From the NCBI GenBank assembly GCA_023247795.1, contig JAHFFT010000008.1:1519-65518 (forward strand): a DNA stretch of 64,000 nt, written 5' to 3'. The stretch is from Candidatus Omnitrophota bacterium. GTDB taxonomy: Bacteria > Omnitrophota > Gorgyraeia > Zapsychrales > JANLHA01. Below are positions 2,668-51,100 of this stretch, in pieces. Numbering within the stretch: the first letter of the stretch is position 1; the number at the start of each line of letters is the position of its first letter. Both the position numbers and the translations under genes were made by a program. The notes below the pieces were generated by a model. The model did no database searches. It saw only the letters and a program-made list of their open reading frames with translations, and had not been told where the DNA came from.

Positions 2668-2680
2668 AAGAAAGGGACCA

Positions 2681-29295: not shown

Positions 29296-29370
29296 TTTTC
29301 CAGTTGCAAGTTTCAGGTCTCAAGTCTCAAGTTACTTGTGGCTTGAGACCTGTCACTTGAGACTTTACTC
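29296..29370. repeat. Intergenic palindromic element, GTCTCAAG family, copy 2
   Basis: Perfect 11-bp inverted repeat caggtctcaag ... cttgagacctg with tandem ctcaagt units; overlaps the 3' end of the DUF4381 ORF. Confidence 0.6.
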
Positions 29371-31214: not shown

Positions 31215-31275
31215 AAACCCCTTTCTTTTCTATTACTTTTTCTGGGGGACTTGTAACTGGGGACTTGTTGCTAAA

Positions 31276-32277
31276 TTATGGGACTTCGACCTCGTCAAAA
31301 ATTCGCTTAATCAAATCTTCCGATGTCTTCTCTTCGGCCTCAGCCTCGTAAGTGACAATGACCCGATGACGTAAGACATCCATCCCAATGGTTTTGATAT
31401 CTTGCGGAGTGACATATCCCCGTCCCTGCAAAAAGGCGTAAGCCCTGGCTGCCACCGCCAAATGAATGGTGGCCCGCGGCGAAGCGCCGTATTGGATCAA
31501 ACCTTTGAGTTCATTGAGCTTGTAATCCTGCGGCTGGCGGGTTGCCCCAACCAAATCAACGATATATCTCTCGATCTTCTCATCCATGTAAACTTCATTC
31601 ACCACCTGACGGGCGCGGATGATATCTTTCGGGCTGACGATCGGCCTCACGTCCGTCTTAAAATCGGTCTTAGCCATCCGACGAAGGATCGCCAGTTCTT
31701 CTTCTTTACTTGGATACGTCACCTTCAATTTCAACATAAAGCGGTCAACCTGCGCTTCCGGCAAAGGATAAGTGCCCTCCTGCTCAATGGGATTTTGCGT
31801 TGCCAAAACAAGAAACGGGTCGTCGAGCTTAAGAGTTTCCTCGCCGATCGTGACTTGCCGCTCCTGCATGGCCTCGAGCAGAGCACTCTGCACCTTGGCT
31901 GGTGAACGGTTGATCTCGTCGGCTAAAATGATGTTGGCGAAAATCGGCCCTTTTTTGATATTGAAATTCCCGGTCCGCTGATCATAAATGAGTGTTCCGG
32001 TCAAGTCCGCCGGCAGCATGTCGGGTGTGAACTGCAAACGCTGAAATTTGGTTTGGATCGCCGATGATAAGGTCTTGACCGCCGTGGTTTTGGCAAGCCC
32101 AGGGACCCCTTCGATCAAGATATGGCCGTTGGCCAAAAGACCGACGATGAGCCGCTCCAATAGCTGCTTTTGCCCGACGATGATCTTCTGCGTCTCCAGC
32201 AAAAGCGCCTCAAGAAAACTGCTTTCCTTCCTCACTCTTTCATTGATTGCCGAAATATCGAATTCTGCCATGACCAA
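31276..32277 (-). CDS. MoxR-family AAA+ ATPase
   Basis: 333 aa; Walker A GVPGLAKT, Walker B ILADEINR, LATQNP sensor region. Confidence 0.85.
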   Translation of the reverse strand: MVMAEFDISAINERVRKESSFLEALLLETQKIIVGQKQLLERLIVGLLANGHILIEGVPGLAKTTAVKTLSSAIQTKFQRLQFTPDMLPADLTGTLIYDQRTGNFNIKKGPIFANIILADEINRSPAKVQSALLEAMQERQVTIGEETLKLDDPFLVLATQNPIEQEGTYPLPEAQVDRFMLKLKVTYPSKEEELAILRRMAKTDFKTDVRPIVSPKDIIRARQVVNEVYMDEKIERYIVDLVGATRQPQDYKLNELKGLIQYGASPRATIHLAVAARAYAFLQGRGYVTPQDIKTIGMDVLRHRVIVTYEAEAEEKTSEDLIKRIFDEVEVP

Positions 32278-32415: not shown

Positions 32416-32476
32416 AAGTTAACAATAAGAGGGACTGTCCCCTAAGTTGACAATAAGAGGGACTGTCCCCTACCTA
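32416..32476. repeat. Tandem ~30-bp direct repeat (aagttgacaataagagggactgtcccct x2) carrying degenerate copies of the locus palindrome, immediately after giant-1 TAG stop
   Basis: Directly visible; RC reads TAGGTAGGGGACAGTCCCTCTTATTGTCAACTTAGGGGACAGTCCCTCTTATTG. Confidence 0.75.
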
Positions 32477-35400
32477 GAAAGGCCTAAAAATTGTGGTAGA
32501 TTGGCTACCGGACGTATGCTAAGGATGATTGGGGTGAGGCCGTGAATCTCAATCGATTCCAAGTCCTGCGGACTGACCTGCAAATCTAGGCCTTGCCCAC
32601 GCACATTGAGATTGACATTTTGCGGATTGAAATCAATACCTCCGGTACTGCTGGATGATCCGGGGTTAACCTCTTTTGGTGTATCTGGGTTTCCGGTCTG
32701 TACAGCCTTGTTGCTGCTCTGCAAATTTTCCCAAAAACCAAACGCCTGGGGCGAGATTGTAATATTTGGATTTGTCGGAAGTTCTACTCTGCTCTTATCA
32801 TCTGAAGAAAGAAAAAAATTATCAAATGACTTCGCAATGGGTTCATGTTTTGCCAACATAACAGTGGCCAACAATTGATTGCCTTCGGAAAATTTTCCTC
32901 CCTTAGTATCGTGGGTTGTTTGCATTCCTTTAAGAACAACAAACACCTGATTTTGCTCCATCCTGGTGCCACTTAAGGATAAAGAATACATCCATTCAAA
33001 AAAATGCCCCAATTCATGCACCATGGTCTCAGTGGGTTGATGCAAGTGCCCCCTGCTGATTCCCGATTGTGAATCGATGGCATCAGCCAAGTTGGCGCTG
33101 ATATAAACAGTATTGGTCCCCACAAAGAGACCGGAAAAATAAGGATTCTCCTGGGCAAGCCTGAAGTCGGTAAACCCCACTTTCTGAGCCATACTTGCCA
33201 CCAAAACCATCAGCCTTTTTTCATTATCAGTTTCCGGCTTTTTTTCAATTTGAGTTAAGTCGAGATTTTTGATTGCCTGTAAAATTCTCGCCATATGTTG
33301 ATGCTGCGCGGCATGAGGATCTTCACTGGCACCTTGATAATCAACTCCCCGCTTCTCAGCCTCTCTCCTCGCCCTTTCCGCGTTGATCTTCTCCTGAGTT
33401 TGCAGACGGCGGATATAAAGACTGGTTTTCTCCTCTTTCCCTTCTTTCGTAAACACTTCCAGTTGAGTAAAAAACGATAAAAGCACCCTCTGCTTCAATT
33501 CCTTTTCTCCAGCATCAACGGCATCTACCCCATCAATCATTTGTTTCAGAGAATCCAATTCCCAATGTTGTACAGGGTGTTCCGGGATTTCTTCTTTATC
33601 ATCCACTTTCTCATGGGCCCTATTGATCCGCGAAATCAAATCGGTTAACGTCGTCGTTCTTCCTTCCTCCGAAGTCAAATCAATGTGATCGGCGTAATTA
33701 ACAACGTTCCAATAATTTTCATTCTGCGATGCCTCCCAGTCCTCTGGAAACGACTCAACCGGATAATTCACGTTATTCAATCGTTCAACAGCCAGGGCCT
33801 TATAAAACTCCAAGGCAATATATTTCTGAAGGACCTCTTTAAAATCGTTGTCCTCTTCTTCAAAGGCATCCCGATTCTGATCCACAGTCAAAGGAATTTG
33901 GATCACCAGACGAAGTCGATGAAAATGCCCGGTCCGGCTTTTGTTTTCTTCTCCCTCGTCGGATTTATCATCTGCCAGTAACAACTCAGGAATGAGGGCC
34001 AGCAAATAACTCTCCATTTTAAGGTCATGCACCCTCAAACCATTTTTATCAACGATCTGAATCGGCACCCCCGGATCCTCCGTTGAATAAATGCGCATTT
34101 TCCCCTCATATTTTATCATCTTCTTGGTGCGCGGATGCGGGGCAATGAAATCAGTCTCGGTTAATATCTTTTTTCCTTTAACAGTCAAAGGGCTCAGTTT
34201 GTTCGCGTCATGAATATCGTCCTTGAAAAAAATCTGAAAACTCTCATCCTGTGACATCCCAGCAAACATCTTCCAACTGCGTTTGGCCAGCATCTGATCC
34301 AACTGCGGAATGGTCTTCTTCAAACTCTTAACGCGGCGTACCATGAAGTTAGCTTTCAATTGACTCGCGTCGCAGCGACGCACCCTGGTCAAACGCACCT
34401 GATGGGCTTCCCGATCAAGAACCATCACAAACATAAAGGCCTGTCCGTCACGATCCTTGGCGATGATCTCAATGCGGTCAACGCCGGCAAACGTGGTATA
34501 TTTACCAGTCCCAAAATAACCAGAAATTTTTCCCAACTGAGCAAAGGCCTCTTTGGTGGATTTCGGAATGATCAAAGCGAGCATCTTGCCAGGTACCGGA
34601 CCGTTGCCATCATCACTGATCTCTTCAATCAACTCATTAGCTTCTTCGTCCTTATAAAATTCCACAACCATATTTTTTGCCCCGCCATCCTTGGAATTTT
34701 GTGGCAGCTCGGCCGCGTATCCACCGGCTTCCCTTTGTTTCTGGGTATAATTATCGATTTCTGCTTTCAACCACTCGTCGTCAGGATAAGCCGCGATCAG
34801 GTCCCTTTGCTCCACCAACTCATCAATGGTGTGCATGTCCGCTTCGGTTTCCGGCCTCTGTTTAAGATCAAGATTCCAATTTGTTATTTTCTCAACAGGA
34901 AGACCATAATCATCCTTCAAGACATCCTCTCCTAGCGGGTCAAGGCGTTTCTTGACCCGGACCGGGGGCGCCTGATTGGTCAACAAGACAACATAGTCAG
35001 CCGCGTTGCCCAGATCTTCTAACCGGCGCTCGTCCTTTAAGGCCCGCGCAATTTTGCCTGAATCAACCTCGGAAAACGACTGGTACCATTTTAAAAGATA
35101 TTCCCCGCTGATTTGCGGATCCAAAAATAATTTCAATTGCCCCATCACGATCTCGATCGCCTGATCTTCGGCCCGGCCGGCCTCTTGCAGAAATTCAACC
35201 ATTTTCACGATCGTGTTGATCTCCAAACGATCTCCCCGCAACCTTCTTAACTCTGCCAATAACTGGTAAATCATAGACATCTGCTGCCACTCCCGCAAAG
35301 TCTGCGGCAGCCAGCCCAACATCATCACTTCAACCGCGTGTTCATCAATCGACGTTAAATCGATCTGCAGATTAGGATTCATGGCCAATTCAAATAATCC

Positions 35401-38400
35401 TTCAAATAAACGCTGATAACAATCTTGGCGCGTAAGCGAATTATCAATACCTTTCACCTGCTGGATCAATCGATCAATCAAGGTCTGATTGGTTGCGTCC
35501 GCGTGATTTAACACCTCAACAATCCGCTTCATCCGTCTGCTGAATTCCTCAGACGGCAGACCTCGCGTGTCGACTACACTCGCTTGAGAATCTACGGCAG
35601 ACTTGAAACGCTGATGAATCCCCCGCTCCTGACGTCGGTAAAAATCCTTAAACCGCTCTGAAAATTTATTTTCCGGCGATTCCCGATATTCCCGTGGAAA
35701 AAGGGATAAAAACGGTTCATAGGCCGTTTGCGCCTCGCTGATCCACTGATCGTGTTTGGATAAAACCTGTTCTTCCCAAAACGTACGGATTCGCTTTTGC
35801 CGGGCAAGCTGTTGTGCGCTCACCCTTACCTTACGAACCTTTTCCAGGTAGCGATCGGGATAAAAATAACGAAATTCATTTTCTCCTCGACGAAACTGAA
35901 AGTTATGGCCATAGGCCTGATAGACCTCGAAGCCGGATTCGACTTCATCGGTGATGTCATAGAGATGATCGTCTTGATCCAACAAATAATACCTCTCGTC
36001 ACGGTCTTGAAAAAGAATGAACGTGTTGTCTTCATTGACAAAACCATTTTTTATATCCATCCGCGCCTCAGTCATTGCGTTAGAAAATATATTTTCGATC
36101 TGCCGATTTCCTTTATATTCAAAACCGACTTTATTGCCTTTTAAACTGCCCAAATCATTTGACCAGTTTGATGGAGACTCGAATACTACCTGGGGGTTAT
36201 TTCCAAATTCTTCAATAAACTTTTTCTGCCTTACAGTCCCCTCCCGCCCTAAAGTAATCAAATCATCCTGATCAGTGATTATAAATTTTGTATCACTGTA
36301 AATGTTATCGGTATCTTTATAATGCAAAGTATAATGATCATCTTCATCCTCGGCTGGAAATAGTGCAATCTCCCGCCTAACTAAAGTTAAATTTTTATTT
36401 TCATATTCGATCCAATATCTGGGCAGGTTGTCTTTACCACCATTGATGACTGCCAATTTATTAAATTTATTACGCCCATCCAATTTAATAGGTGCCTGCC
36501 TAGGTTCCGGGCCGATCTTGCCAGTAAGCGGATCCTTAATGAATTCATAAAAATACTCATTTCTTGAGTCATATTCTGCAATGAACAAATAAACCCTTTG
36601 GCCGTCTTCGGCGATCGAGATACTGCCATTACCGAGAAAATCTTTATCGAACTCGGCAACGGATATGATTTCCCCTGTTCCCAAATGAACAATCCGACAA
36701 TTAGCTTTCCCCAGATTAACAATGGCAAAATTTCCAGTGTGATCAATGAGAACGTTTTCCGCTGTTCCCTTAAATATTTTATTACCACTAACCAAATCCA
36801 TAACAAAAAATTCACTCGTTGACTGATCCTTAAGAATGACAACATCGGCGTGATGATCGACATATAATTCATCATAATACATATACCCGCGCGCCTGATG
36901 AGATCCCATTACATGATCAAAAATAAAAGCAGCCTTCCTGCCTTGGCTATCACGTCCTTCATGGATCGAAAAACGGCCGGAATGAGAAAAATAAATTTCT
37001 TGCGTTCCCAGGTATTTAAGTTGATTTCCCTTGCCATCGTCATAATCTCCAGGGTGGACTGTATGAAACATAGGCAGGTTATTCGGTAGATTGCGAATCC
37101 CATCCAGAACACCCCAAACACTGCCCATGGCCTCTGTTCGACGATATTTGATATACTTTCCTTTGACCTCAACTATTTGATACCCCTCAGCATTGAATAA
37201 TGAAATCCGCGCCTCCAACTTTTGCCGATCAACCTCTGGCTCGCCTTCCGGCTTTTCCTTGGTGAACGGCTTTGCCTCCTGATCAATCTTGGTTATGAAT
37301 CCATCATCAACAAAACGCAAGTAAGGATTGACATAGATGACATTTCGAGTTTTTGGATTTTCTAAAACAAAATATTTTCCATCGAATGAGACGACCGGAT
37401 AATCATTTGCGTCGGCAAATTCAGCGCTGGTCGTACCATCGGGCAGATCCAAAACCTTGAGCTGTTGACCTTCTCGGATGACGGCATACTGCCCATCGCT
37501 AGACATGGCGACCAAGTCATACTCAACTGGAGTATCTAGAACTTGGTCATCCAAAAAATCACGATAAGACAATAGCTTTCCGTTAGCAACGGTATAAAAG
37601 GCCACTCCTTCGCGATAATAAACGATATCGCCTTTAAACCGAACTTTTTCACCTGTTTTCATCTCTGTTGCTTCCTGTGCTTCGACTTGTTGTTCTATCA
37701 ACAATGGAAATTTGGGATGAATACTCGATAAAACATAAAGGAAGTTAAACAGCTTATTTTCTCCCCTATAAACTCTGCCAAGCAAAAGCTCCGTTAATTC
37801 AATTCGATTCGCGAATATTGAGGACATTGATTGACCAGTCGTATCCAACATAATCTCCCCATCTTGATCGACAAAAAACCGTCTCCCCTCCAAGGTCTCG
37901 ATGACACAAAATTTATCCTGATCGTCAGCGTCATTAAAGGAGCCGAAATTAACGGCTGTAATGTGATTAGCATTAGCGATGATATATGGATTTTGAAAAG
38001 GATGTTCCCATGTTAGTTCCGGGGTCGCTGCGGTACTAATCAGCTTATGCGCCGCGTGAATGTATATTTGGAGCTGACCAGAATCAGTCTTAAAAACCGA
38101 AAACCGCTGCTGCGGGTCAGTGTAAACATTCCGGCCGGTAACGACATTCCCATTTTCTAAATCCATCCAGTAGAACTTACCGTCCGCGGCTTTGAGTTTA
38201 GCCATATGTTCAATCTCGCCATATTCGTAACTTACAGCCTCAAAGACAACATTCTGATGAAATTGCAAATCCCAGCTATAAAATTTCCTTATTCCGTTCG
38301 TCTCCTCCAGCCACATCACAAAGAGGCCGTTTTTACTCATGCGGACATCGTGCGCGCGACGGTCCGGCTCATATTTAAGAACTTCGGCAAAATCATCGAC

Positions 38401-41400
38401 CTGTTTTTCGGTTTCGGTATCGAGCATCGTGATTAAATTTTGAGTCGATATCACTGTTTCCGGCACATAAGCATACCTGCCGTCTGGACTAATTAATACT
38501 TCTTGACCACGCACTCCCAATTCTCTCACATAATTACTGTCTAAAATTTTAAAGAGTATTTTCTTTTCTTTAATGAAAAGAACTTCCAACAAATAAAAAT
38601 TATTTCTTAGAGGAATGATTGATTTAAACCGATACCCTTCACGATTCTTGACCACCTGCCCAGAGTTGATATCAATCAATTGACCTTTGTCATCAATCAT
38701 ATACCGTTTCCGCGCTCCTTCCGGAACCCGTTGATTTGATGGAATCAGCTCCGGCGGGTCTTTGGTCAAAAATTGATTGATCGCCTCAGAATCAATCCCT
38801 CCGGTCGACCTGGCAAACCGATAAGTCAATCTTTCTAACAGTTCCACTGTCTTTTGCGGTGTTTCCACTTCATAAGACGTCACCACCGTCTCATCGGTTA
38901 AAAGTTTGATCAACTGGGCTTGCTGGTAAAGCTCGATCTGCTCGCCCATCGTTAACTTTTGCCGTTTCCTACGTTCAACCAAAGCATTGAAGCGGGCCAC
39001 AAATTTTTTCGGGATCGCCACATACCCATCACCCTTAATCCGCGGAAGGGGGTGCTTCTTTAAAAAATCAAAGGTGTTGATATCAAAATTTTCAAATTCG
39101 TTGATAGTGTCCTCTTTGAAATCCACGGCCACCAAAGGAATTTCCCGGTCTTTTCCGTCGATGTTTCGAATCAAACGAAAAACAGCGGTGTCAACAACCT
39201 CAGCGCCTAAGGCCTTCAAACTGATCTGATCGTTCCAGTCAAAAAGGTGTTTGTCCAAATAAATGGTGGGATGTCCTGTTTCCACCTGGGCGAACTGCCG
39301 ATCATGCGGCAAAAAAACATACCCTTGGCTTTGCAGGTCCGCGACCACAGCCGCGATTCTATTTTTGACCGCATCGGTGATCTTACGGACGATATACTGA
39401 TTGTCCTCATTGTTTCCAGCCAAGGCCTGTAACCCGATGATCATCATGTTGATATATTTCAGCAGCCCGACAGGATCAGCATCGAGTTCAGGATTGGCTA
39501 GCAAGCCTTCCACCATCCGCTCAACGGCAAGTTTGATCGGCCAGCGCTGCCGCGGATCGTGTTCAGAAGGAAAAATGATCCCGCTCCTTGCCTGGTTGAT
39601 CTCAACCATGATCCCAAATTCCAGCACCAGTTTCCCCGGCACAATCGCGTCTGGATTGATCTTTTCGCCGACGGGGATTGTGGTGATGACCTCCTCGCGC
39701 CGGGCGATCGCGATCTCTGACTTTTGCTTTTTCGTGTCATGGATCACCATCAATTCCTTTAACTCGTCCTCTAAATTCTGTTCGGTCACGTAAGCGGGCC
39801 TTTTCTCCCCGCCCGCGGGCACCATCATCCGACTGACAGGTGAAGCCCCCATCCCTTTACCGTTATCAATGACCTTAATTTCGCGATCATCAAAAATGAG
39901 ATTGATTTCCTTACCCGTCGACTGTTTATCTTCGATGGTCGCGGCCCTTTGACCTGCCGGCATCAGGATACGGCGATGCTCTGCGCCGTTGACGACTTCC
40001 TCTATCCCACGCAATCTGGTTTTAATGGCGATATCCTTAACATAAGCGAATCGGTCATGGATTTCTTCTTTGATGCTCGTCAAGGAATTGAGGGATTTAT
40101 GTTCGTAAGGAATTTTTCCTTTGAGCTTTACACGTATAACCGTGCCGTTTTCATAAGCATTGTTTTCGGCGGCGGCCCGAAAATCATTCCTGGAAACCGC
40201 TTTGATCTGGATATACCATTGCCCGGTTGGGACGCGCAGGATCGTGAGCTGATATGGTGTACCACCTTTCTGTAGAGTATGCACATCAATCCGGTCCTCG
40301 CCGGTCGCCTCCAGCCAGCGGATGATCTGTTTGACCCCTTTTCCAAACTGTCCGAGCCGGCCGCCCAAAGCGTCAATGCTGTTTGAGGCCGCCTCAATGA
40401 TCCCTTGTTTGCGGGCGTTGCTCCCTTGCTTAAAAACTGTCTTTTCCAGCAAGTCCGACGGTTTATAAGTACCGGCGTTGATGGCATCGATTGATTCACC
40501 GTCGTAACCGCTCAAAGATAGGTGTTGAAGGATCTGCTGATAATAATTTTTCCTTTTCCTTGGATTGTATTCGCTTTCATCCGTGATGATGTTTAATTTT
40601 TTCAAAACCGCCTTGAGTTCATCTCCCTTCAAGCTGCCCTTTTCCATCCGCTCTTGAGCACGAATGAAATGCCAAATGCTGACACCATGGAACCCCTTGC
40701 CGTCGTCGTATTCCTTGGTGGTTGGACTGTTTTTAATTTCGTCGGTGGAACTCAACATCAACTTATCCATGCTGGACGCTGGCGCGGCATCCATTTGACC
40801 CGACGCTGGTCCGACAATGTCTTGCGTCAGCGTGTCAACAATCTCGACCTCGCCGTGGGAGAGCAACGCGGCAGCACTCACAGAAGAAACTTGCCGGAAA
40901 ACCCTTTCTGTTTCAACTCCGGCATTGGTCCCGCCGCCAAAATACTTGCGCGGGATCGCGCTTTTCGAAACAGGATCGGATTCTTCCCGAATCAAGTTAT
41001 AAACCCCCTTGCGGTAAGCCTCGATATACCGTTCATAAATCTTCTGGTTCACACGCTCATCCTCAACTTGAACACCGTTGGTCTTATTCTGATTCACGTA
41101 CTTTTGGCCCAGCAAACTTGACTTAAGAGCGCGCTTGTACCACGTCGCCAAGATAAGCGCGTCATAGATCTGGCGCAGTTGACCAAAATGCGATCCCTCG
41201 TTGATTTCCTTTTCTAAGGCCGGCAAAACGATTTCGCGCATGACGGTGTTCGACAATTCATTCAATGGTTCCGCATCCTTTGCCGCTGTTGAGTCCGGTC
41301 CCTTTTGATCCTTTTGCCGATTGGCGTCAGCAGCCAAATAGTCCGCATCCAGCATGACCTTAAGGTGACTCTTGACGATATACGCGGTATTTTCGTGGGT

Positions 41401-41985
41401 ATAAACATCGGCGCTATCGGGCACGATCCAGACCTTATTAAAAGTGTTGATCGGAATATTGGTTGTTCCGTATTGCGCGAGGGCCCGCTCATAAACCTTT
41501 TTCCAAAAAATTTGGCCGAACTCATCTTCGGGATACAACAAAGAAGCGGTGATTTGTTTCAAAAGATAATCTTGCGCCAAAAGGTCGCGGCCCATGTCGG
41601 TCCGGCCGAATTCGTCCGGGACAACGCGCTCTTTCTCGTAGGGCGAAAGGTTCACCCACTGGTCTTCGGCGCGGGTGGTGAGTGAAGCTAAAAAATATTT
41701 GATCAATTGGGTCGAGGATTTTTCTTTCTCGTCCTTGTTCAATTTCTGATCACCGAAATCAATAATGAATTCAAATCGAAAAGGCTCTTGAGGATGTACG
41801 CGCATTCCCTTAATGACCGGTGGATGAAAAGCTGTACTTAACCGCACCAATTCCCCGGGAACGGGAAGATTTAACAGTGCGGCCGTTGACTGGGCATAGA
41901 CCGGCGGCGGCAGGATCAATAAAAGAATTAAGAGAGGGGACAGTCCCCTGTGCAAAACCTGTGTAAAACTAGCGTATTTTTTCAT
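32470..41985 (-). CDS. Giant secreted/surface protein 1 (~3,171 aa): N-terminal giant-family domain, two GHKL/Hsp90-like ATPase modules, beta-propeller-like repeats, HExxH motif, conserved C-terminal domain
   Basis: Uninterrupted 9.6-kb ORF. Listed ORF start 42108 is a TTG; ATG at 41983-41985 (MKKYASFTQVLHRGLSPLLILLLILPPPVYAQS) gives a classic signal peptide and is preceded by TTGTTA-N17-TATACT. GHKL N-box IIEAASNSIDALGG (~40360-40395) and G1 box VIDNGKGMG (~39850). Second GHKL-like ELPQNSKDGGA / DDGNGPVPG / GYFGTGKYTTFAG (~34400-34750). SxDGxY-type repeats ~36500-38500. TMVHELGHFFEW at ~33005-33040. Confidence 0.85.
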   Translation of the reverse strand: MKKYASFTQVLHRGLSPLLILLLILPPPVYAQSTAALLNLPVPGELVRLSTAFHPPVIKGMRVHPQEPFRFEFIIDFGDQKLNKDEKEKSSTQLIKYFLASLTTRAEDQWVNLSPYEKERVVPDEFGRTDMGRDLLAQDYLLKQITASLLYPEDEFGQIFWKKVYERALAQYGTTNIPINTFNKVWIVPDSADVYTHENTAYIVKSHLKVMLDADYLAADANRQKDQKGPDSTAAKDAEPLNELSNTVMREIVLPALEKEINEGSHFGQLRQIYDALILATWYKRALKSSLLGQKYVNQNKTNGVQVEDERVNQKIYERYIEAYRKGVYNLIREESDPVSKSAIPRKYFGGGTNAGVETERVFRQVSSVSAAALLSHGEVEIVDTLTQDIVGPASGQMDAAPASSMDKLMLSSTDEIKNSPTTKEYDDGKGFHGVSIWHFIRAQERMEKGSLKGDELKAVLKKLNIITDESEYNPRKRKNYYQQILQHLSLSGYDGESIDAINAGTYKPSDLLEKTVFKQGSNARKQGIIEAASNSIDALGGRLGQFGKGVKQIIRWLEATGEDRIDVHTLQKGGTPYQLTILRVPTGQWYIQIKAVSRNDFRAAAENNAYENGTVIRVKLKGKIPYEHKSLNSLTSIKEEIHDRFAYVKDIAIKTRLRGIEEVVNGAEHRRILMPAGQRAATIEDKQSTGKEINLIFDDREIKVIDNGKGMGASPVSRMMVPAGGEKRPAYVTEQNLEDELKELMVIHDTKKQKSEIAIARREEVITTIPVGEKINPDAIVPGKLVLEFGIMVEINQARSGIIFPSEHDPRQRWPIKLAVERMVEGLLANPELDADPVGLLKYINMMIIGLQALAGNNEDNQYIVRKITDAVKNRIAAVVADLQSQGYVFLPHDRQFAQVETGHPTIYLDKHLFDWNDQISLKALGAEVVDTAVFRLIRNIDGKDREIPLVAVDFKEDTINEFENFDINTFDFLKKHPLPRIKGDGYVAIPKKFVARFNALVERRKRQKLTMGEQIELYQQAQLIKLLTDETVVTSYEVETPQKTVELLERLTYRFARSTGGIDSEAINQFLTKDPPELIPSNQRVPEGARKRYMIDDKGQLIDINSGQVVKNREGYRFKSIIPLRNNFYLLEVLFIKEKKILFKILDSNYVRELGVRGQEVLISPDGRYAYVPETVISTQNLITMLDTETEKQVDDFAEVLKYEPDRRAHDVRMSKNGLFVMWLEETNGIRKFYSWDLQFHQNVVFEAVSYEYGEIEHMAKLKAADGKFYWMDLENGNVVTGRNVYTDPQQRFSVFKTDSGQLQIYIHAAHKLISTAATPELTWEHPFQNPYIIANANHITAVNFGSFNDADDQDKFCVIETLEGRRFFVDQDGEIMLDTTGQSMSSIFANRIELTELLLGRVYRGENKLFNFLYVLSSIHPKFPLLIEQQVEAQEATEMKTGEKVRFKGDIVYYREGVAFYTVANGKLLSYRDFLDDQVLDTPVEYDLVAMSSDGQYAVIREGQQLKVLDLPDGTTSAEFADANDYPVVSFDGKYFVLENPKTRNVIYVNPYLRFVDDGFITKIDQEAKPFTKEKPEGEPEVDRQKLEARISLFNAEGYQIVEVKGKYIKYRRTEAMGSVWGVLDGIRNLPNNLPMFHTVHPGDYDDGKGNQLKYLGTQEIYFSHSGRFSIHEGRDSQGRKAAFIFDHVMGSHQARGYMYYDELYVDHHADVVILKDQSTSEFFVMDLVSGNKIFKGTAENVLIDHTGNFAIVNLGKANCRIVHLGTGEIISVAEFDKDFLGNGSISIAEDGQRVYLFIAEYDSRNEYFYEFIKDPLTGKIGPEPRQAPIKLDGRNKFNKLAVINGGKDNLPRYWIEYENKNLTLVRREIALFPAEDEDDHYTLHYKDTDNIYSDTKFIITDQDDLITLGREGTVRQKKFIEEFGNNPQVVFESPSNWSNDLGSLKGNKVGFEYKGNRQIENIFSNAMTEARMDIKNGFVNEDNTFILFQDRDERYYLLDQDDHLYDITDEVESGFEVYQAYGHNFQFRRGENEFRYFYPDRYLEKVRKVRVSAQQLARQKRIRTFWEEQVLSKHDQWISEAQTAYEPFLSLFPREYRESPENKFSERFKDFYRRQERGIHQRFKSAVDSQASVVDTRGLPSEEFSRRMKRIVEVLNHADATNQTLIDRLIQQVKGIDNSLTRQDCYQRLFEGLFELAMNPNLQIDLTSIDEHAVEVMMLGWLPQTLREWQQMSMIYQLLAELRRLRGDRLEINTIVKMVEFLQEAGRAEDQAIEIVMGQLKLFLDPQISGEYLLKWYQSFSEVDSGKIARALKDERRLEDLGNAADYVVLLTNQAPPVRVKKRLDPLGEDVLKDDYGLPVEKITNWNLDLKQRPETEADMHTIDELVEQRDLIAAYPDDEWLKAEIDNYTQKQREAGGYAAELPQNSKDGGAKNMVVEFYKDEEANELIEEISDDGNGPVPGKMLALIIPKSTKEAFAQLGKISGYFGTGKYTTFAGVDRIEIIAKDRDGQAFMFVMVLDREAHQVRLTRVRRCDASQLKANFMVRRVKSLKKTIPQLDQMLAKRSWKMFAGMSQDESFQIFFKDDIHDANKLSPLTVKGKKILTETDFIAPHPRTKKMIKYEGKMRIYSTEDPGVPIQIVDKNGLRVHDLKMESYLLALIPELLLADDKSDEGEENKSRTGHFHRLRLVIQIPLTVDQNRDAFEEEDNDFKEVLQKYIALEFYKALAVERLNNVNYPVESFPEDWEASQNENYWNVVNYADHIDLTSEEGRTTTLTDLISRINRAHEKVDDKEEIPEHPVQHWELDSLKQMIDGVDAVDAGEKELKQRVLLSFFTQLEVFTKEGKEEKTSLYIRRLQTQEKINAERARREAEKRGVDYQGASEDPHAAQHQHMARILQAIKNLDLTQIEKKPETDNEKRLMVLVASMAQKVGFTDFRLAQENPYFSGLFVGTNTVYISANLADAIDSQSGISRGHLHQPTETMVHELGHFFEWMYSLSLSGTRMEQNQVFVVLKGMQTTHDTKGGKFSEGNQLLATVMLAKHEPIAKSFDNFFLSSDDKSRVELPTNPNITISPQAFGFWENLQSSNKAVQTGNPDTPKEVNPGSSSSTGGIDFNPQNVNLNVRGQGLDLQVSPQDLESIEIHGLTPIILSIRPVANLPQFLGLSR
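41932..41951. repeat. Locus palindrome gcACAGGGGACAGTCCCCT inside giant-1 signal-peptide coding region (part of 34-bp segment shared with giant-2 upstream region)
   Basis: aggggacagtcccct at 41935-41949; extended match gttttacacaggttttgcacaggggactgtcccc (minus strand) vs gtttttaacaggttttgcacaggggactgtcccc upstream of giant 2. Confidence 0.8.
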
Positions 41986-42001
41986 AGTAAATGATATAAA
42001 G

Positions 42002-42030
42002 AGTATAAAACATAATACTATAAATAACAA
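42002..42030 (-). promoter_or_regulatory. Putative sigma70-like promoter of giant gene 1 (TTGTTA-N17-TATACT)
   Basis: Minus-strand TTGTTA tttatagtattatgttt TATACT, 16 nt upstream of ATG 41985; same TATACT -10 as giant 2. Confidence 0.35.
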
Positions 42031-42127
42031 AACATTAGAGGAATAATGGTCCGCTAGATCAGAATGGACATTTCCTAAAAATTGTAAATTTGTAACTATT
42101 TTAATCAAAACGATTTACGCACTTATT

Positions 42128-42145
42128 AACAGGGGACTGTCCCCT
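42128..42145. repeat. Locus palindrome AACAGGGGACTGTCCCCT overlapping giant-2 TAG stop
   Basis: RC reads ...CAT CAA TAG GGGACAGTCCCCTGTTAATAAG; perfect 15-bp palindrome. Confidence 0.85.
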
Positions 42146-45100
42146 ATTGATGAAGGGCAACTTCTTCGGGTGTGACAGGTTGCGGTGAAATTCCTAAAAA
42201 TAGCGGGAGGTTGGTGATGGGGACGGTATGCGTAATGACCGGGGTAAAGCCTTCGATGGGGATCTGCGAAAGCCCTTCGGCACTGTCCGTGACTTGCAGA
42301 TCAATGCCTTCCCCTTCAACCTGCATTTGAATCAACGATGGGTCCAAATCAATCCCGCCCGGGATCTGAGCTTCGGGAGAATTTTGCCAGCCAGGATGAA
42401 GCATGACGCTCGGAATGATCTCTACAGAAGTGTTTAGGTTCATTGGTTCTGACTCAGTTTTTGACAGGAAAAAAGCATCATTTCTCAACATCTTATTATA
42501 CATCTTACCTGCACCAGCTTGAACTCTGGCATCTATTCCTCGGGCGTCCATCAAACCCATTAAAACCCTATGAAAAATCTTCTCCTCGCCCTCGTCTTTA
42601 AATTGCTCTCTGACCTGTTGCAACGTTAACTCTACATCAACTAACGAGTTCAGCAAGTTGACGAGAAAAGCATTGACCTCGATCGGTTCGGCCGCTTCCT
42701 CTTGTTGGATCACTACTGGTGCGGCCGCAACCCCCAAAAATTCCGGAGTCATGTCGGCCCTGGTAAGGGGCTTTTGTCCGTCGATCCTCAATTCCAAATC
42801 AGCTCGGTCGATCCGTTTAAACAATTCCGCGATGCTTTGACGCATCTCGGGAATGAGCTCACCAGATGTCATCTCAATGACCTGTAAATTCGGTAATGCT
42901 TCTAAAATACTGATCAACCGATCATTGAATTTCATAAATGGCAACCTCAGCGTTTTGATTCGTTTGATTTGTCTCAGGAATTCAATCCGCAAATCTTTTG
43001 GGTTGACCTGACTCAAATCCAAGGAAAACGTATCATCTGGTCCACGAATAAAATGATTAGAAACGTTATGAACTATACCAATATGCTTTAAGAAAGATAA
43101 TTGATGGTCTAAGGAGAACCCTGATCCAATTTCTCCAATCACCTGCTTAGATACATCCTCATACGTTATCGCAGCTTTATTTCCATTTTTGATCGTTAAT
43201 TCCTTTCCTCGCGGATGAATGGCAATAATGAGGTAGGCCACAAATCCAAAGTCCCAACCAACAGTCTGGTCTTCCGTCAGTATTAATTCTTTCAACCTTG
43301 GCCATTCGCACGTATGTATGACCAATCTCAAATAATTCCCAACCATTGTTGGCAACGCCACCGAAGCAAGATTCCTTAATTTATGCAAATCTTTTAAGTA
43401 CAAACTTTCGCCTGAAGGTTTACTTTTTGTAAGATCAAGCTTAATTACGGTGGTCCCATCTGTATCCTTGAACGTTGAAAGTGTCTCATCGGTCAAAGGC
43501 ATGTGACTGCGTTGCAAAATTTCTTTTGCCAATGCAATCTGTTCTGGAAGGCTCAATTCCTTCAGCTCCGGCAGTTCACTCGAAAATGGTTTGACCTCTG
43601 CTGACAACTCTTCCTCGCCAGTTTTCTTATACTCATCCGGCACATCGTCGTAAGTAACGGTAAACTTGTCATTAACAAAAACAACCATATTCCTGCCATT
43701 GGGATGTTGGGCCATAAAACGATAAAGATCATCTCGGCCGGACATCGAATCCTCTAAATGAATACCCAAATAGGTCAAATTTGGCATGCTGTTCAAAGAA
43801 TTGAGGTTGCCGTCCACAGCATCAAATTCTAAATTAAGATAAATGATATTTTCCATTGGCGGGATGGTTTTCAATGTTAGGGTGCCATTCCCTTTGAGTT
43901 CAAAATGACGAAGACTCACCAAATCTTCAAACCCAAGCTGACCGGTTGAAAAAATGCTGGCATTAACTTTCAGCGAATACAAATTGGGGAGTCCCTTTAA
44001 CTTGTCCATATTCGTTAGCGAATGCTTTATTGCTTGACCATTTTTATCATGCTGCAGATCTAAATCAATCCGCTTAGTTTGTTCAATTGCTGGCACATTG
44101 ATACTCATAAACTTTTCTTTTGAAAAATTTGCCCCCATAAAGTAACCGACTTTCGCGACTTGCCCATAAAGTGTATTTTTCCCGCTTGACGGAAAATTCG
44201 GCATTTGCCCGCCACGTGTATACATGAGTCCATTGAGAATCACGATCATATGCTCGCCGTTAGGATGCGTTTCCAATAATTGTTTTACTTGCTCGATCGT
44301 ACAGTACGCACTAGTAATTTTAACCACTTGCAATTTCTTTAAGTCATTCAATAGCTCAAGATCGATTTGCTCATCGCTTGTGAAAACAAGATGTCTTAAT
44401 TCTTGCAGTGGAGACAAGAATTCAAGGCCGCCAGCTTCAAGTCCATAAATGGTTAACTCCCTTAACTGTGGAACATGACGTAGTTCTTTTAAATTTTCTT
44501 CGTCCCATATCATAAACATTTTCTTTAAATCCGGAATTTGCGAAAGCGGCTGCAAACTTGGAACCTGACCGTCAAAATGAAGACCAATGGTTTGAAACGG
44601 TTGGCTCAATTCCATAAAACCCTTGATCATTTGATCGGGACCGAAAAAGGCCCTTACCGCGGCCGCTTGCTTTGTAAACGACTCCATTTGCGCGTTCATA
44701 TCTGCCAACCTCTGCAACGCACGAGCTTGTTCATCTTGCGGCGCTGGGCTCAATAGCGCGGGACTCAATTCTTGTTCCTCCCTCTTCATCGCATCAATCC
44801 GTTCGCGGACATCAGTGACCACTCCGCCCGAATCAAATGTTTTCAATTGGAAAACTTCTGGATAAGGATGGTCAACAAGCGCTTTGAGGGCATTGGTCAA
44901 TGTCAAAGTTTTGGTTGAAGGAATCTTTGAGAAATCCACAACAATGCTTCCTGCGACATGGGTCAACGTTCCCTTAACATCACCGCTGGGAATCGAATAA
45001 AGCCTCCCTAGATTTTCCACATAATGTTTTAGAGCGGACTGTAAATCAATAACAACCTGAATTTCTCTCTCAAAAAATTTTTCTATCTCGTCTACTCCCT

Positions 45101-48100
45101 TTAACACCCATTTCTTGCGTGGAGGCTGTAAAGTAAAATCCTTTCGAAGGGGATGAGCCCGGCATAAATGCAAAATTTGATGGGAAGGCACATTCGTATT
45201 TTGCAAATCAAGAATACGAATAACGTTACCATTAAGATGATACAGGCTTTGCAATTTGGGGGTGTTCAATTCGAGCTCAAAAACATCGACACCTTGCAAA
45301 CAGGGAAGTTCAGTGGCTTGCGGATCATCCACCGTCAAGATTTTCAATTGTTGGAATTCATTAAGGTCGCGCAAATGACCATAATCGACGATCAGCGAGG
45401 CATTGCGCAAGATCACCTGCTTTAAAAAACTCAAATGATTCAGCTTGCTCAAATCAGGAATGGTAGTCACATTCTTAAGGACAAGCGCCAGATACGGCAA
45501 TTCCTTTTTGCCGGATTTTTTTCCGGGCTGAATATGAACGTCCGCTTGATCAGGTCTTAAACCCAATTCTTTCAAAATTTCTTTAGCAGTGATCGACTGG
45601 AAAGCAATCACCTTATCAACAGCACTATCAACGATACCCTCTATGCCAAATTCCATTCCTGCGGCAGGGACTATTATTAAGTTGTCCTGATTAACATGCC
45701 ATAACAAAAGATCGCTAGTCGCAAAATCTCTAGAATTATCGACAGTATTCATCCGCGAAAGATCAAGATACCGCAAATGACGCGCACCCAATAAAGGCCG
45801 GAAGTCACCGTCTTTACTAAACGTAGAAGTCCCCATATCAATACGTTTCAAAAAAGTCAGTCTTTCAAAAGGCAGTTCACTGAATTTTTTATAATTTTCC
45901 GGAGTGATCTTAAATTCAGCCGCGATATACGGACGATTGTCGTCATCAAAATGGATGGCTGTGGGAGTCACGAGACCGGAATCGAAAAGATAATCCGCCT
46001 GATCATCGATCGTTTCCAGCCAGTTTGTTGGTTGGGTCTCTTCCAACCCAGCCGCACTGACAGTTGACGGCTGAGACTTCTCTTCAACTTTGGCCGGAGA
46101 TTTTTGTCCCGACAGTTGATTCTGATTTGCTTTAAGGAAAGACTCGTAACTTCCGTAAAAATATTTGAAACCACTGTGGTCTGTCTCATCCCTCAGATTG
46201 ATATTTAAATTCGGACGCTGTTGATAAAACTCATTGATTTGCTCTATGGTCAGGCTCCCATCCCAGGGTAATGTCAATGTTCGCAAATTGGCACATCTCA
46301 AAATAGGTGATAAATCTCGGATCCCGGATTTCGCTAAATCCAGGCTAATGATGGCATCGAAATCCTCTAAAAAACTAAAATCACCGGTCAGGACCGGCGC
46401 AGAAAATGTTAAAAAGCCGACATTTTTATTGGTCGCTAACGCTCGTAACGACTGATAATCCTTAGCGTCGACAGAAGAAAATTCAACAATGACCTGATCC
46501 AATCTCAAGTCATCCGACAAGACGCCCAAATCCACATTCGCTGATCCGTCAGTTGTGACAGGAGGCTTCTTAATTTTTAATATCACATATCCACCAAGCC
46601 CTGATTCCGCGGTGATGCTAAAATTTTGGTCAAACACTAACGAGCTTCCCTCTGTCAACTTTTGCCTAATATTTTGCATCGCCTCTTGTCTTACCTCTTC
46701 AACGAACGATGGATCTAGATTCGCGAGTTTCCATTCTCGACCATCCGGCATCTTGACTTTTAGCATCATACGATTAGGATGATGGGCCAGAAACCGCCGG
46801 ATGTCCTCCTCAGTCACGGAGCCCGGTAATAAATTGGAAAGATCAACAGCGGTCAAATTATAAGCACCATAAAGAAAATCGAGATCATTGAGCGCGGAGG
46901 CGCTCAAATCCACCTTGGTCAATGCCGGACTATTTATCAACGCCCTTCTCTTGATTTTCCCCAAATCTCTAGCACTCATTCCGCTCAAATCCAAAAGTAA
47001 TTCTTTGTTTCCCTCCCCTACGTCCTCCCTAAAACGAATCCTATACGAATCAAATCCCCCAATCGCAGCTGCTAATAAACCAATGAGATAATATTTTTGC
47101 GGATTATTATCATTCACGGCCTGTTCGGCCGATTCCGGATTAAGGTTCGAAGCCTCTTCAGGTTTTATCCGATCACCATACTCGGCCATGAATCGATCAT
47201 AACTTTCCATTGTAAATTCGTCTCCTGATGGAAGAAAAAATGTTAATTGAAGATTTGGCCGCTGTTGATAAAATTGAGCAATGTCTTCTAAAGATAAACC
47301 CTGCCCCAAATAAACACTCAAAGATTTAAGATATTTCAACCGCAGGCAAGGCGATAAGTCATTGGCGGCTTTATGCAACACCAAATCATAAAGGTTGGGG
47401 AAGAATTCAACGATCTGGTTCAAATCCAATGGATTAGGATTGGATGCGTCATCAATCTGAATATCTCTAATATTTCTATTTAATCCTAACGAAGATAACG
47501 CTCTCTTCCCTCTTTCTGTGGACGCATCAAAATTGATTTTCACTTCATCTAACCTTAAGACATCTTGCAAAACCGACAAACTTGCTCTTAACGATACGCC
47601 AGTCAATGAACCCGTCAAATCTTTATTAGATGGAGGGGATTTCAACACTAAAACCACTGAACCCTCATCGGTTTCATCAACCGAAAAATCAGTGCCTTCT
47701 TGCATTCCTTGTCCTTTTAACTTATCAACGATGTCTTTTTTAGCTTCTTTGACAGCTTCCGTTTTATAGTCTTCCTCTAAAGATCCAAAATTCAATTCAC
47801 TCCCATCCGGCAAAAATATCTGCAGAAACTGTCGATTGGGATGGTGGGCCAGGAAATATTTAATATTTTTAAGCGAAGCTCGCGAAGGTAAGGAACCTTT
47901 AAAACTAATGACCCGTAGGTTATGAGCACTGTAAAACGTGGCAAGTACTGTAGGATCCACATTTGCCGTTGCTAGCCCAACCCACTCCAAGTCTGGAAAA
48001 TCGACAAACGCATTACTTTCAATTTGACGCAGAACCGCGACCGGTTGATCGAACAAATCTACTGCCAAACTTTGACTCCTATCTATTCTAGGGAGTGGCG

Positions 48101-51100
48101 CAACATTGCCTTTATCAAAACCCGGAATCACGCTTGCCAAATAATCCGCCAACCGCTGTTTTTGCGAAGAAATCTCTTCAGCCGGCGAGCTATCTAATGC
48201 CTTTCCCAATGGAAGCTCATCCTGCGTCCCGGCCAGCTCGCTTAACTGTCCCTCATTTTTTGCAATGAAATCTTGATAATCTTTATAATCGACCAGCCCT
48301 GAGTTCCAGCTGGAAGGAAGCAGACACAACTTCATATCCGGCCGCTGCCGATAAAAATCATCCATGCCCTGCAAACTTAAAGCCTCACCACGATATAGCA
48401 ATAACTGTCGAAGATATTTCAACTGCAAGCAAGGGGACAGGTCATTTGCGGTTTTCGGCAAACCCAAAACATAAAGGTTGGGAAAATCTTCAACGATTTG
48501 CTGCAAATCCAATGAATTAGGATTTGCCTTTGAATCAAACTGGACATTTCTAATGTTCTTATTTTTACCTATTTGTCGTAAGGCTAACTTCCCTCTTTCT
48601 GAAGAAGCGTCAAAATTGATTTTAATTTTATCTAGCGGAATAATGTCATTCAACACCGACAAATCTGCTGCAGACGGAATCCTTTTCAACACTAAGACCA
48701 CTGAACCCTCGGTTTCATGAACTGAAAAATCAGCGAGTTCGACCATTCCTTGATTCCTCAGCCTGGCAACGATGTTTCTCTCAGCTTCTTTACAGACGCC
48801 TGCTTTACTTTTTTGGTCTAAAGATTTAAAATCCAATTCACTCTCATCCGGCATAACAACCTTGAGAAACCAGCGGTTAGGATGGCGGGCGAGAAATTTC
48901 TTGATATCCTCCTCACCTATTGAACTAGACGTTTTTTTCAATCCTTTAAAACTGATCTCCTTCAAGTTGCGGGCGCTGTAAAGAAAATTCAAATCCATGG
49001 GTTCTGCCTCGGATAAATCCACGGCCTCCAAAGCTGGATAATCAGAAAACGCGCGATCTTCTATTTGATGCAAATCGTAATTGGAAAGCCCGTGCAAATC
49101 CAGAACCAAATATGACCCATTCCACAAGGCAACCCGATGAGGATCAAACCCTATAATCCTTCCTGCCAAATATACGGCCAGCCGCTCTCTTTGCAAGAAA
49201 TTATTCGTGCTTTCTTCTTCTGACGGCTGCGCTCTCTTGGCCGACGTTTCAGTTTGCTGAGCGGCCTGATTCTTACTGGATGTGGCCACGGGCCACCAAA
49301 TTTTTCTACCATCAGATAGCTCGATTTCTAATTTTTCCCGATTTTTATGCCTCATCAACAAATTCACGAGGAATTCATTCGGCATCTCTTGCCTCAATTT
49401 CAACCTTGTCAAATTCTCCAAACTCAACAAAGGATCGAGCCGGTCAGCTTGTTCAACTTTAATTTTGATATCGACCTCTGTAAGCAAAGAAAGTTTGGCA
49501 AACTCATTTTGAGCGAATGTAGCGAATGTATCATAATTCTCTTCCGTGACATCCACCTGCAAAGAAAAATAAGGCTCACCAGTACTGATATGTTTAAGAC
49601 TGGGCACAAAAAGCGCAAATTCCGAACCATGCTCCTTACTGAAATCTGACAAAATATTGAATTGGGCAATGCCTTCCGGGCCCGTAGCCGATATTTTTTC
49701 CTCCGCCGGCATTTGCACTTCAACTTGCGCCTCTACCACCTGCCCCTCCCGCTCCAAGTCCGCTAATGTCAATTGCTTGTCGTCCGGCATCAATATTCGT
49801 AAATTCTTTCGGTTGGAGTGAACGCGTAAAAAGGCCTTGATCTGATCCACGGAAACGGCTCCGGGGAGCAAATTCTTCAAAGACAATAATTTTAGGTTCT
49901 TAAAATTTAATAAACCATCGAGATATTCGACATCCGTATTATCCAATTCAACGATCCCGACATTATGAAAAGAGGTCGAACGTATTGCCTGGCTAGCCTT
50001 CGATGACGGATGAAAGATATCTCCAACCCCCTTCAAGTGCATCAATGACAAGACAATCCCCGCCCCTTTGGGAAAAGTATCATCTTGAAAGTCGACAACC
50101 CGATCCGAACCAAACCCGTTTAGAATACCGCTAAACAACTCAAACAACTGATTTTTCTGCTCCTCGACAGATAATTCCGGTTTCTGGTTTGGCGCAGAAA
50201 CTTGCGTCGTTACCTCCTCCTGTGCCAACGCCTTCAAACACTCCCGATAATCGGCAAAGACCCTGCCGTCGGGCATGATGATGCGCAGACTGGCAGCGAT
50301 AGACGGGGGTAAAAGCCTAATGATCCTGGTGATCTCCTGATTGGTCAAAGGTTTTATTTTGGGAAGTGTCATATCCACAAAACCATCTTTATCGGAACGA
50401 ACGTTAATTCCCCTTGCACTTGGCGTGTTTCCTTCGTCTATGATACTAATCAATAACAAATCGAGTTCTGCCGCATCCAACCTCATTCCCTTTGCGATCT
50501 CTTGACTGTGCTGCTTTGTATACTTAGCCATGCTTTCTTCGTCAGCAATCTTGATTTCTTGATTAGGAAAGCTAATATGTAAAATAAATTTGTCTACAAA
50601 ACTAAACATTAAATTAAATTGCGATCTACCAATATCGGGATAACGTGTCCATAACTGAAGCACCTGCTTTGCGCTGACCTGTGAATCGATAAAAAGCTCC
50701 TGAATGGGACACCCAAATAAGGGGGCGATATTCGTTACCCCCGTACCGCTGAGTGAAATCGTCGCCTGATCCAAATCCACCCTTTCAAGAAAAGAAATAT
50801 CCGTCAACTGCGGATCATTGCTTAAGAGCAATGTCTTGTTTCCCCTATGCACATTCCATTTTGAAATTTCAGAAAGGTCCAGCCGACTAGGATATTCAAC
50901 ATTAAGAATTCCGAAGTAACCCAATCGATAAATCGCTGATAAATCCGGTAGACGGCCTTCGGTCAATTCGACATTGATTTGTATCATTTCTTTATTCACT
51001 TGCAGACGCACGGAGCCGTCAGGTAACCCTGGGATTTTAGCAAGTTCTCGCTGAGCAATTTTCAACTGATGATTAACCGCCTCCTCGATCTGCTCATGAA

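Follow-up and report, generated by a model that had tools for sequence, protein, structure and literature searches.

Among ATPases of the GHKL type, GyrB, MutL, Hsp90 and MORC form dimers that are closed by ATP, and to our knowledge all characterised GHL ATPases are ATP-driven dimeric clamps. Hsp90-like ATPase modules are also found in the eukaryotic protein sacsin, where together with an S5 fold they make up the so-called sacsin repeating regions, and among zincin proteases the use of His rather than Glu as third ligand is the pattern of Wss1 and SprT. Here we describe Giant 1, a gene from a Candidatus Omnitrophota bacterium whose product of 3,171 amino acids brings together two modules of the GHKL type, a region resembling beta-propellers and a zincin-like domain. 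The gene lies in a stretch of 64,000 nucleotides (hereafter the window) of contig JAHFFT010000008.1 (assembly GCA_023247795.1, positions 1,519 to 65,518 of the forward strand).

Sacsin is defined by a UBL domain, three sacsin repeating region modules, a DnaJ domain and a HEPN domain (PMC3710099). In Omnitrophota, giant proteins have been described as Archaeovorins, dockerin-type proteins and multi-enzyme "long proteins" (10.1101/2023.11.21.568195; 10.64898/2026.06.07.730766; PMC10066038). According to the two preprints among these, such giants have at least 10,000 amino acids (2026 preprint, 10.64898/2026.06.07.730766) or are encoded by open reading frames (ORFs) of more than 20 kb, with many transmembrane helices, HEAT repeats and dockerins.

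Results

A conserved multidomain family

Giant 1 represents, in Omnitrophota, a conserved family of multidomain proteins for which neither Pfam nor NCBIfam holds a model. Its core is almost certainly composed, in this order, of a rearranged GHL-type module (module 1), one or two beta-propellers, a conserved spacer, a canonical GHKL module of the Hsp90/sacsin/MORC kind with its middle domain (module 2) and a small zincin. A search with the whole protein retrieved at least 1,349 relatives, of which those that bear a name are annotated as Omnitrophota or Omnitrophica, and 16 orthologues (P0002-P0017, 2.3-4.6 thousand amino acids) share residues ~481-1045 and ~2081-3045 with 25-43% identity. With clusters defined at 50% identity, a profile of module 1 matched 298 of them at E ≤ 1e-3, of which 89 remained at E ≤ 1e-30. 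The motifs of the core recur among around 140 cluster representatives, in such a way that nearly all the full-length ones show an N-box, a G2 box at +14-20 and a G1 box at +135-180, followed downstream by a module with the canonical N, G1, G2 order. The profile extending from module 2 to the zincin was matched by 71 of 139 representatives, most of them with a HExxH motif near the end of the match.

In a scan of species-representative genomes, close relatives were found in Omnitrophota, with a few bins labelled Ratteibacteria, Elusimicrobiota, Auribacterota or FCPU426 and some automatically labelled otherwise, and distant relatives were found in Patescibacteria (Roizmanbacteria, Levyibacteria, Moraniibacteria, Microgenomates). 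A set of proteins of ~1,850-2,150 amino acids has the same core, carries no signal or transmembrane segment and ends right after the zincin. In one Moraniibacteria genome (L061:9578-15102) the relative appears to be split into four consecutive overlapping ORFs, which could be due to frameshifts, to a pseudogene or to assembly errors. The Omnitrophota genome MAG_AAO_H125.54 carries two copies with module 1 on different contigs (L004 and L006), and therefore the family can be paralogous within one genome.

Giant 1 occupies most of a minus-strand ORF spanning 32470..42108, with the ATG at 41985 as the likely start codon, and its 3,171 codons are followed by the stop codon (Table 1). A public protein collection holds an identical copy of the protein (P0001). 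A first-pass annotation of the window had placed the protein at 33000-40450 from a series of quoted motifs; all of them were found at the given places in this one ORF, but the gene goes beyond this interval on both sides, by ~0.5 kb at its downstream end and ~1.5 kb at its upstream end.

Table 1. Features of Giant 1 and its surroundings, in window positions; residue numbers are those of the encoded protein.
Feature	Position	Strand	Observation
Giant 1, whole gene	32470..41985	-	3,171 amino acids, identical to P0001
Signal-like segment, residues 1-33	41887..41985	-	MKKY..., Leu-rich core, VYA-QS
N-module, residues 41-360	40906..41865	-	~50% identity to >100 inspected large Omnitrophota proteins
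Conserved block A, residues 481-1045	38851..40545	-	Rearranged GHKL, transducer-like and helical/alpha-beta domain; model pLDDT 82.7
GHKL module 1, residues 510-810	39556..40458	-	N-box, G2, sheet strands, then G1 and lid
N-box motif, module 1: IIEAASNSIDALGGR	40357-40401	-	Seen in ORF
QFGKGVKQ, module 1	40327-40350	-	Seen in ORF
IKVIDNGKGMG, module 1	39847-39879	-	Seen in ORF
Beta-propeller-like region, residues 1090-1560	37306..38718	-	Profile match at ~1145-1350
Variable beta-rich region, residues 1561-2080	35746..37305	-	Possible second propeller; weak WD40 matches
Conserved spacer before module 2, residues 2081-2394	34804..35745	-	Shared by orthologues
GHKL module 2 and middle/transducer-like domain, residues 2415-2740	33766..34743	-	Canonical motif order
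AELPQNSKDGGAKN, module 2	34672-34713	-	Seen in ORF
ISDDGNGPVPG, module 2	34588-34620	-	Seen in ORF
GYFGTGKYTTFAG, module 2	34483-34521	-	Seen in ORF
Minimal zincin-like domain, residues 2914-3045	32851..33246	-	H2990-E2991-xx-H2994, H3025 (THD)
TETMVHELGHFFEW, HExxH region	32992-33033	-	Seen in ORF
C-module, residues 3086-3171	32473..32730	-	GGIDFNP...LPQFLGLS; common to related large proteins and Giant 2
Giant 2	42144..62300	-	6,718 amino acids
Giant 2, N-module	61227-62177		51% identity to that of Giant 1
Giant 2, C-module	42186-42359		~60-80 amino acids
ORF upstream of Giant 2	62460-63977	-	505 amino acids
Bat/aerotolerance-type operon	23580-32277	-	Directly downstream of Giant 1
bAvd-like gene	30858-31214	-	118 amino acids

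Two GHKL modules, one of them rearranged

The presence of two GHKL modules in Giant 1 had been proposed from motifs, together with a check on their catalytic Glu and Asn residues. This proposal stands, as HATPase-type hidden Markov model (HMM) matches exist and, in 16-17 orthologues at the 25-43% identity given above, the residues of the N-box and of the G boxes can be aligned and do not vary, the catalytic ones among them. Module 2 is a canonical GHKL ATPase of the Hsp90/sacsin/MORC kind. Its boxes follow the N-G1-G2 order, E2426, N2430, D2433, D2458, G2462, G2489, G2492 and G2494 are invariant in 16 orthologues, and S2476 and K2478 are residues of its ATP lid. In the query itself the Pfam match to HATPase_c_3 is sub-threshold (E 1e-3) and the NCBIfam model P_loop_sacsin matches at E 0.04; HATPase_c_3 is matched by 7 of the 16 orthologues (best E 1e-6) and the SACS Pfam domain, weakly, by 3 (E ≥ 0.05). 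A profile of the 16 orthologues aligned in a colinear way with Hsp90 N-domains from the N-box to G2 and past it (E 3e-5). The AlphaFold2 model of residues 2395-3045 had a mean predicted local distance difference test (pLDDT) of 76 and a predicted template modelling score (pTM) of 0.74, with low confidence exactly at the ATP lid. The Bergerat fold is found in module 2, and its nearest neighbours, both by profile and by fold, are the Hsp90-family chaperones and sacsin.

Module 1 has a different motif order, a detail absent from the first-pass annotation. Its N-box helix is followed by a G2-type loop and helix (G545-QFGKG-550, at +14), then by the sheet strands that usually come after G2, and finally by a hairpin that ends in the G1 box (D707-NGKGM), located ~160 residues past the G2-like box and around 175 from the N-box, with a lid-like stretch (RMxVPxGGxK) after it, so that the canonical N-G1-G2 order is not kept. 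Residues E531, N535, D538, G545, F547, G550, D707, G709, G711 and M712 are invariant in 17 orthologues. In its native order, query module 1 gave no Pfam match, and 6 of the 17 orthologues matched HATPase_c weakly (best E 0.0086). The orthologue profile matched GyrB and HtpG (E 2e-3), and the GyrB match by HMMER was non-colinear, query 98-185 corresponding to GyrB 137-221 and query 210-239 to GyrB 64-94. With hhalign, the GQFGxG that follows the N-box of module 1 aligned to the G2 box of module 2.

The effect of re-ordering was then assayed in silico, with block residues 205-257 put back between the N-box and G2. After this change, HATPase_c was matched by 10 of 10 orthologues and HATPase_c_3 by 9 of 10, the matches being colinear from the N-box to beyond G2 (best E 2.8e-6) and three of the re-ordered orthologues scoring above a Pfam gathering score (HATPase_c or HATPase_c_3). 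With the re-ordered segment, the hhalign alignment to module 2 also grew from 43 to 101 columns, and its probability rose from 12% to 92% (E 7e-7). Four results, namely the non-colinear GyrB match, the hhalign pairing and these two gains, support a transposition in this GHL-type module, with the segment formed by hairpin, G1 and ATP lid predicted to lie behind the sheet instead of between N-box and G2. The AlphaFold2 model of block A (residues 481-1045, pLDDT 82.7) is available for this region, and the Bergerat fold is found in module 1 too.

Both modules keep all the Mg-ATP-binding residues and the catalytic Glu, and judging from these residues both probably bind ATP. Alternatively, the two modules and the HExxH motif could be degenerate relics within a structural or adhesive scaffold, no longer binding ATP or zinc, as could be supposed from the sub-threshold Pfam scores of the query, from the non-canonical motif order of module 1 and from a predicted export (see below) that would put ATPases where ATP is absent. 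Nevertheless, the ATP and Mg ligands, both catalytic Glu residues and the HExxH plus His set are invariant across orthologues at 25-43% identity, and the motifs recur in most of the ~140 distant representatives, supporting active sites under selection and making relics very improbable.

The middle of the protein

The region between the two modules had been described as encoding repeated SxDGxY motifs typical of propellers. The strict form occurs only 3 times and a looser blade-like pattern 6 times, with blade-like motifs at residues 1166, 1217, 1300, 1495 and 1533, and self-BLAST of residues 1046-2080 gave no internal repeats; its propeller-like nature was nevertheless supported. The middle region of the query alone gave no Pfam match, and a profile of residues 1090-1560 built from 8 orthologues significantly matched beta-propellers in the Protein Data Bank (PDB), namely hydrazine synthase beta (E 2.7e-9), the WD40 domain of ATG16L1 (E 1.3e-6) and TolB (E 1.7e-5). 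The middle regions of orthologues carry PQQ_2 or WD40 matches, and in a distant relative from Patescibacteria the two GHKL modules are separated by a propeller with a strong WD40 match (E 6e-35). The core of Giant 1 is thus predicted from sequence comparison to contain one or two beta-propellers. The second, possibly formed by residues 1561-2080, lies in the least conserved part of the core, where orthologue occupancy is ~50% and the profile gave weak WD40 matches (E 0.06-0.8). The conserved spacer that follows had no family match when the query sequence was searched against Pfam.

The GC content was 0.40-0.43 in window positions 36001-38000 and 42001-54000, compared with 0.47-0.49 elsewhere. 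The first of these intervals, with a value of 0.40, overlaps the variable propeller region of Giant 1, and the combination of low GC with a variable, least-shared propeller region would fit module replacement.

The zincin-like domain

Near the C-terminus, the zincin consensus recognised earlier corresponds to a zincin-like domain with what is probably a three-His site. Residues H2990, E2991, H2994 and H3025 (the last in a THD motif) are invariant in the orthologues, H3025 being the candidate third zinc ligand at 31 residues after the HExxH motif, and HExxH is found at the equivalent place in most cluster representatives. Its predicted structure is that of a folded domain of helices and strands and not that of a linker, with helices 498-540, three strands at 546-569, a helix at 589-611, a further strand and a helix at 637-650 (numbering of the 2395-3045 model). 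None of the curated peptidase HMMs reached threshold for this domain, and in comparisons it scored 5.7 with projannalysin and with Wss1, 5.5 with Spartan, 5.0 with TTHA0227 and 4.9 with CapP and with BepA.

The invariant third His, which is the ligand pattern of Wss1/SprT, brings in the possibility that Giant 1 is a nucleic-acid-directed machine, made of a MORC/MutL/topoisomerase VI-B-like clamp and a DNA-dependent Wss1/SprT (Spartan)-like protease, for instance for the removal of protein adducts or the remodelling of nucleoproteins, and the short relatives that have no signal do look cytoplasmic. However, HtpX and jannalysin equal Wss1 in score, and the third His is farther from HExxH than in Wss1 or Spartan. 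Moreover, the Hsp90-family chaperones and sacsin are the nearest neighbours of module 2, Pfam detected no DNA-binding, nuclease or topoisomerase partner domain in Giant 1, and the Omnitrophota form of the family carries an export signal, so that we consider this function improbable.

A frame shared with large proteins of different cargo

The only hydrophobic segment of Giant 1 (residues 7-25) is followed by VYA-QS, and a [YF]AQ just ahead of LNLPxPG is kept in its paralogues. This N-terminus reads as a Sec-type signal, from which cleavage and export are predicted. The earlier description of the protein as secreted is based only on this segment, which distant relatives with the same core do not have.

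In more than 100 listed proteins of 1.7-5.4 thousand amino acids, what is shared with Giant 1 is limited to residues ~25-370 (~50% identity) and the final ~80. The cargo found between these shared ends is as diverse as glucose-6-phosphate isomerase, phosphoglycerate kinase, UbiB, M48, methyltransferases, response regulators and helicases. In an alignment of 15 paralogues, 77 columns of the N-module are invariant; this module matched nothing in Pfam, and its profile found nothing in NCBIfam or among PDB sequences. The C-module, which 115 of the 119 listed proteins carry no more than 74 residues from their end, had no match in Pfam or NCBIfam. Giant 2, which precedes Giant 1 with a gap of 158 bp, shares both modules (Table 1). 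Giant 1 has the three parts of what we define here as the frame, a definition of our own and not a curated one: a signal-like N-terminus, the N-module of ~320 amino acids and the C-module of ~80. Because the distant relatives have the core without the signal and end after the zincin, the N and C modules can be regarded as an Omnitrophota-specific frame around an older core, and they look like a lineage-specific framing or targeting system. In Giant 2 a single domain was detectable by Pfam, an AAA_5 (dynein/MoxR-like) ATPase at residues 1357-1480, with no GHKL, and its C-terminal 3,400 residues gave no Pfam match.

The frame poses a paradox, in that the Sec-type signal is conserved and yet the cargo needs ATP or S-adenosylmethionine (SAM), as is the case of GHKL in Giant 1, of AAA_5 in Giant 2, and of phosphoglycerate kinase, kinases, helicases and radical SAM enzymes in the paralogues. 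Because predicted export coexists with ATP-dependent cargo, Giant 1 could also be seen as an exported effector or surface protein of a host-dependent or predatory lifestyle. Its signal peptide and the N and C modules would bring it out of the cell, and maybe into a host or prey cell, where the core would act on host proteins with host ATP. Besides the Sec-type N-terminus with its conserved [YF]AQ site and the lack of other hydrophobic segments, the presence of just 4 Cys in 3,171 residues and of cytoplasm-type ATP- or SAM-dependent enzymes within the same frame in over 100 inspected paralogues would agree with it. Most occurrences of the family are also in lineages of episymbionts, Omnitrophota and Patescibacteria, and Omnitrophota are reported to be ultra-small, host-dependent or predatory, with a proposed action of their giant proteins on target cells (PMC10066038; 10.1101/2023.11.21.568195). 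By contrast, no secretion-system genes adjoin Giant 1 or two of its orthologues, the C-module matches no known sorting signal in Pfam or NCBIfam, and the short distant relatives inspected have no signal, so the core is not intrinsically an exported effector. We regard an effector role as rather unlikely; it concerns location and not mechanism, and is compatible with the clamp considered below.

Genomic surroundings

Directly downstream of Giant 1, on the same strand, there is a complete operon of the Bat/aerotolerance type, with genes for MoxR AAA_3, a 23S rRNA intervening-sequence protein (23S-IVP)/bAvd-like protein, DUF58, a protein of unknown type, two BatA-VWA proteins, a TPR protein, BatD and a TPR-SH3 protein. 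The Bat/MoxR operon was considered as a partner of Giant 1 and rejected, as two orthologues sit in unrelated housekeeping neighbourhoods, and it is treated here as a fortuitous adjacency. Within the operon, a gene whose product belongs to the 23S rRNA intervening-sequence proteins (bAvd-like four-helix bundle) stands between MoxR and DUF58, which is an unusual location for it. On the other side, the ORF upstream of Giant 2 had no Pfam match.

Discussion

Since characterised GHL ATPases are dimers, the presence of two unlike GHKL modules in one chain suggests an ATP-closed heterodimeric clamp. As a mechanism, the clamp would close when modules 1 and 2, whether within a single chain or between two chains, dimerise on binding ATP; a client protein would be kept on the propeller and cleaved or processed by the zincin, and the role of the frame would lie in export, anchoring or delivery and not in catalysis. 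As a whole, such an ATP-gated clamp acting as a chaperone-protease is in our opinion plausible, and is proposed tentatively. Of its parts, the formation of the clamp by pairing of modules 1 and 2 might be expected by analogy with the GHL dimers and is put forward with considerable doubt, and similar doubt affects the coupling of proteolysis to the clamp.

Several points weigh against this mechanism. The pairing of the two modules is taken from the GHL dimers and not from Giant 1 itself. The re-ordering of module 1 was designed to fit the canonical order, which alone favours better scores. No conserved gene neighbours with functional hints were found around Giant 1 and two orthologues. Finally, with a signal-like N-terminus the protein is expected to be exported to where ATP is absent, in conflict with an ATPase mechanism unless it reaches the cytoplasm of another cell. 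A more ambitious reading would join all the elements, making of Giant 1 an obligatory heterodimeric single-chain ATP clamp with propeller and zincin, a new class of ATP-dependent chaperone-proteases with the first transposed G1/lid in a GHKL fold, largely restricted to ultra-small host-dependent bacteria, namely Omnitrophota and Patescibacteria; in addition, the Omnitrophota frame would be the mark of a new route by which hundreds of cytoplasm-type enzymes, Giant 1 among them, are exported or delivered out of the cell or into a host. It is unlikely that all of it holds together.

The component folds of Giant 1 are known folds. What appear to be new are the transposed GHKL module, the fixed four-part architecture common to Omnitrophota and Patescibacteria, and the common N/C frame. 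We know of no precedent for a GHKL fold with the G1/lid segment moved behind the sheet, and a full-text search for "GHKL" with "permuted" gave no such variant; in the literature covered, which is incomplete and does not prove absence, neither a permuted GHKL nor such an architecture was described. If real, the transposition would mean that an intensively studied ATPase fold has been rearranged in nature in an uncommon way. Most large proteins of Omnitrophota and Patescibacteria lack an assigned function, and this family offers a conserved core that can be expressed and assayed, with clear active-site residues. The frame, seen in the more than 100 proteins inspected of the at least 1,349 matches, points to a common mechanism of localisation or assembly, and makes it more pressing to ask why enzymes that depend on ATP are found in exported proteins.

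Giant 1 belongs to the general phenomenon of large proteins in Omnitrophota and not to the described giant types. With the described giants it has in common the phylum, a signal peptide and mixed enzyme cargo that includes HATPase-type domains, as far as the accessible text of the two preprints goes (10.1101/2023.11.21.568195; 10.64898/2026.06.07.730766), and that text makes no mention of a shared N/C frame or of a GHKL-propeller-GHKL-zincin core. Giants of this combination had been regarded in the first-pass annotation as an undescribed class; the architecture was indeed not found in the accessible text of the three Omnitrophota papers, but large multi-enzyme proteins of the phylum were already described there. 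Membership among the Archaeovorins or dockerin-type proteins was rejected, as Giant 1 has 3,171 amino acids, one hydrophobic segment and no HEAT, dockerin or TSP3 Pfam domains.

Among the minimal zincins, the domain of Giant 1 resembles Wss1/SprT (Spartan) in its three-His pattern, and differs from Wss1/SprT, HtpX/M48 and the projannalysin minigluzincins in having its putative third ligand at +31 and in being fused to the end of a GHKL module. In the GHL subgroup (GyrB/Hsp90/MutL/MORC), the GHKL is followed by a transducer or middle domain that provides a basic residue for the gamma-phosphate, and the association of GHKL with a putative transducer-like second domain in Giant 1 would be shared with the GHL clamps (MORC, SMCHD1, MutL, GyrB/ParE, TopoVI-B); unlike them, Giant 1 has no CW, coiled-coil, endonuclease, Toprim or DNA-binding domains, and unlike the homodimeric ones it has two unlike modules in one chain. 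Giant 1 shares with Hsp90 (Hsp82, HtpG, TRAP1, GRP94) the N-box ExxxNxxDA and the DxGxG and GxFGxG boxes. Membership in the Hsp90 family was rejected, as there was no PF00183 match and only the N-domain, with part of the M-domain by fold, resembles Hsp90. Unlike Hsp90, Giant 1 has its modules within a chain of three thousand amino acids that also carries a protease, shows a transposed G1/lid in module 1 and has no detectable C-terminal dimerisation domain. The proposed likeness to sacsin is borne out by the repeated Hsp90-like modules but does not extend to membership, as no Pfam match to UBL, DnaJ or HEPN was found at E ≤ 1 and SACS was matched only at E ≥ 0.05 in 3 of 16 orthologues. Like sacsin, Giant 1 carries Hsp90-like GHKL modules in more than one copy along one very long polypeptide; unlike sacsin, it has two such modules instead of three, one of them rearranged, and combines them with a propeller and a zincin.

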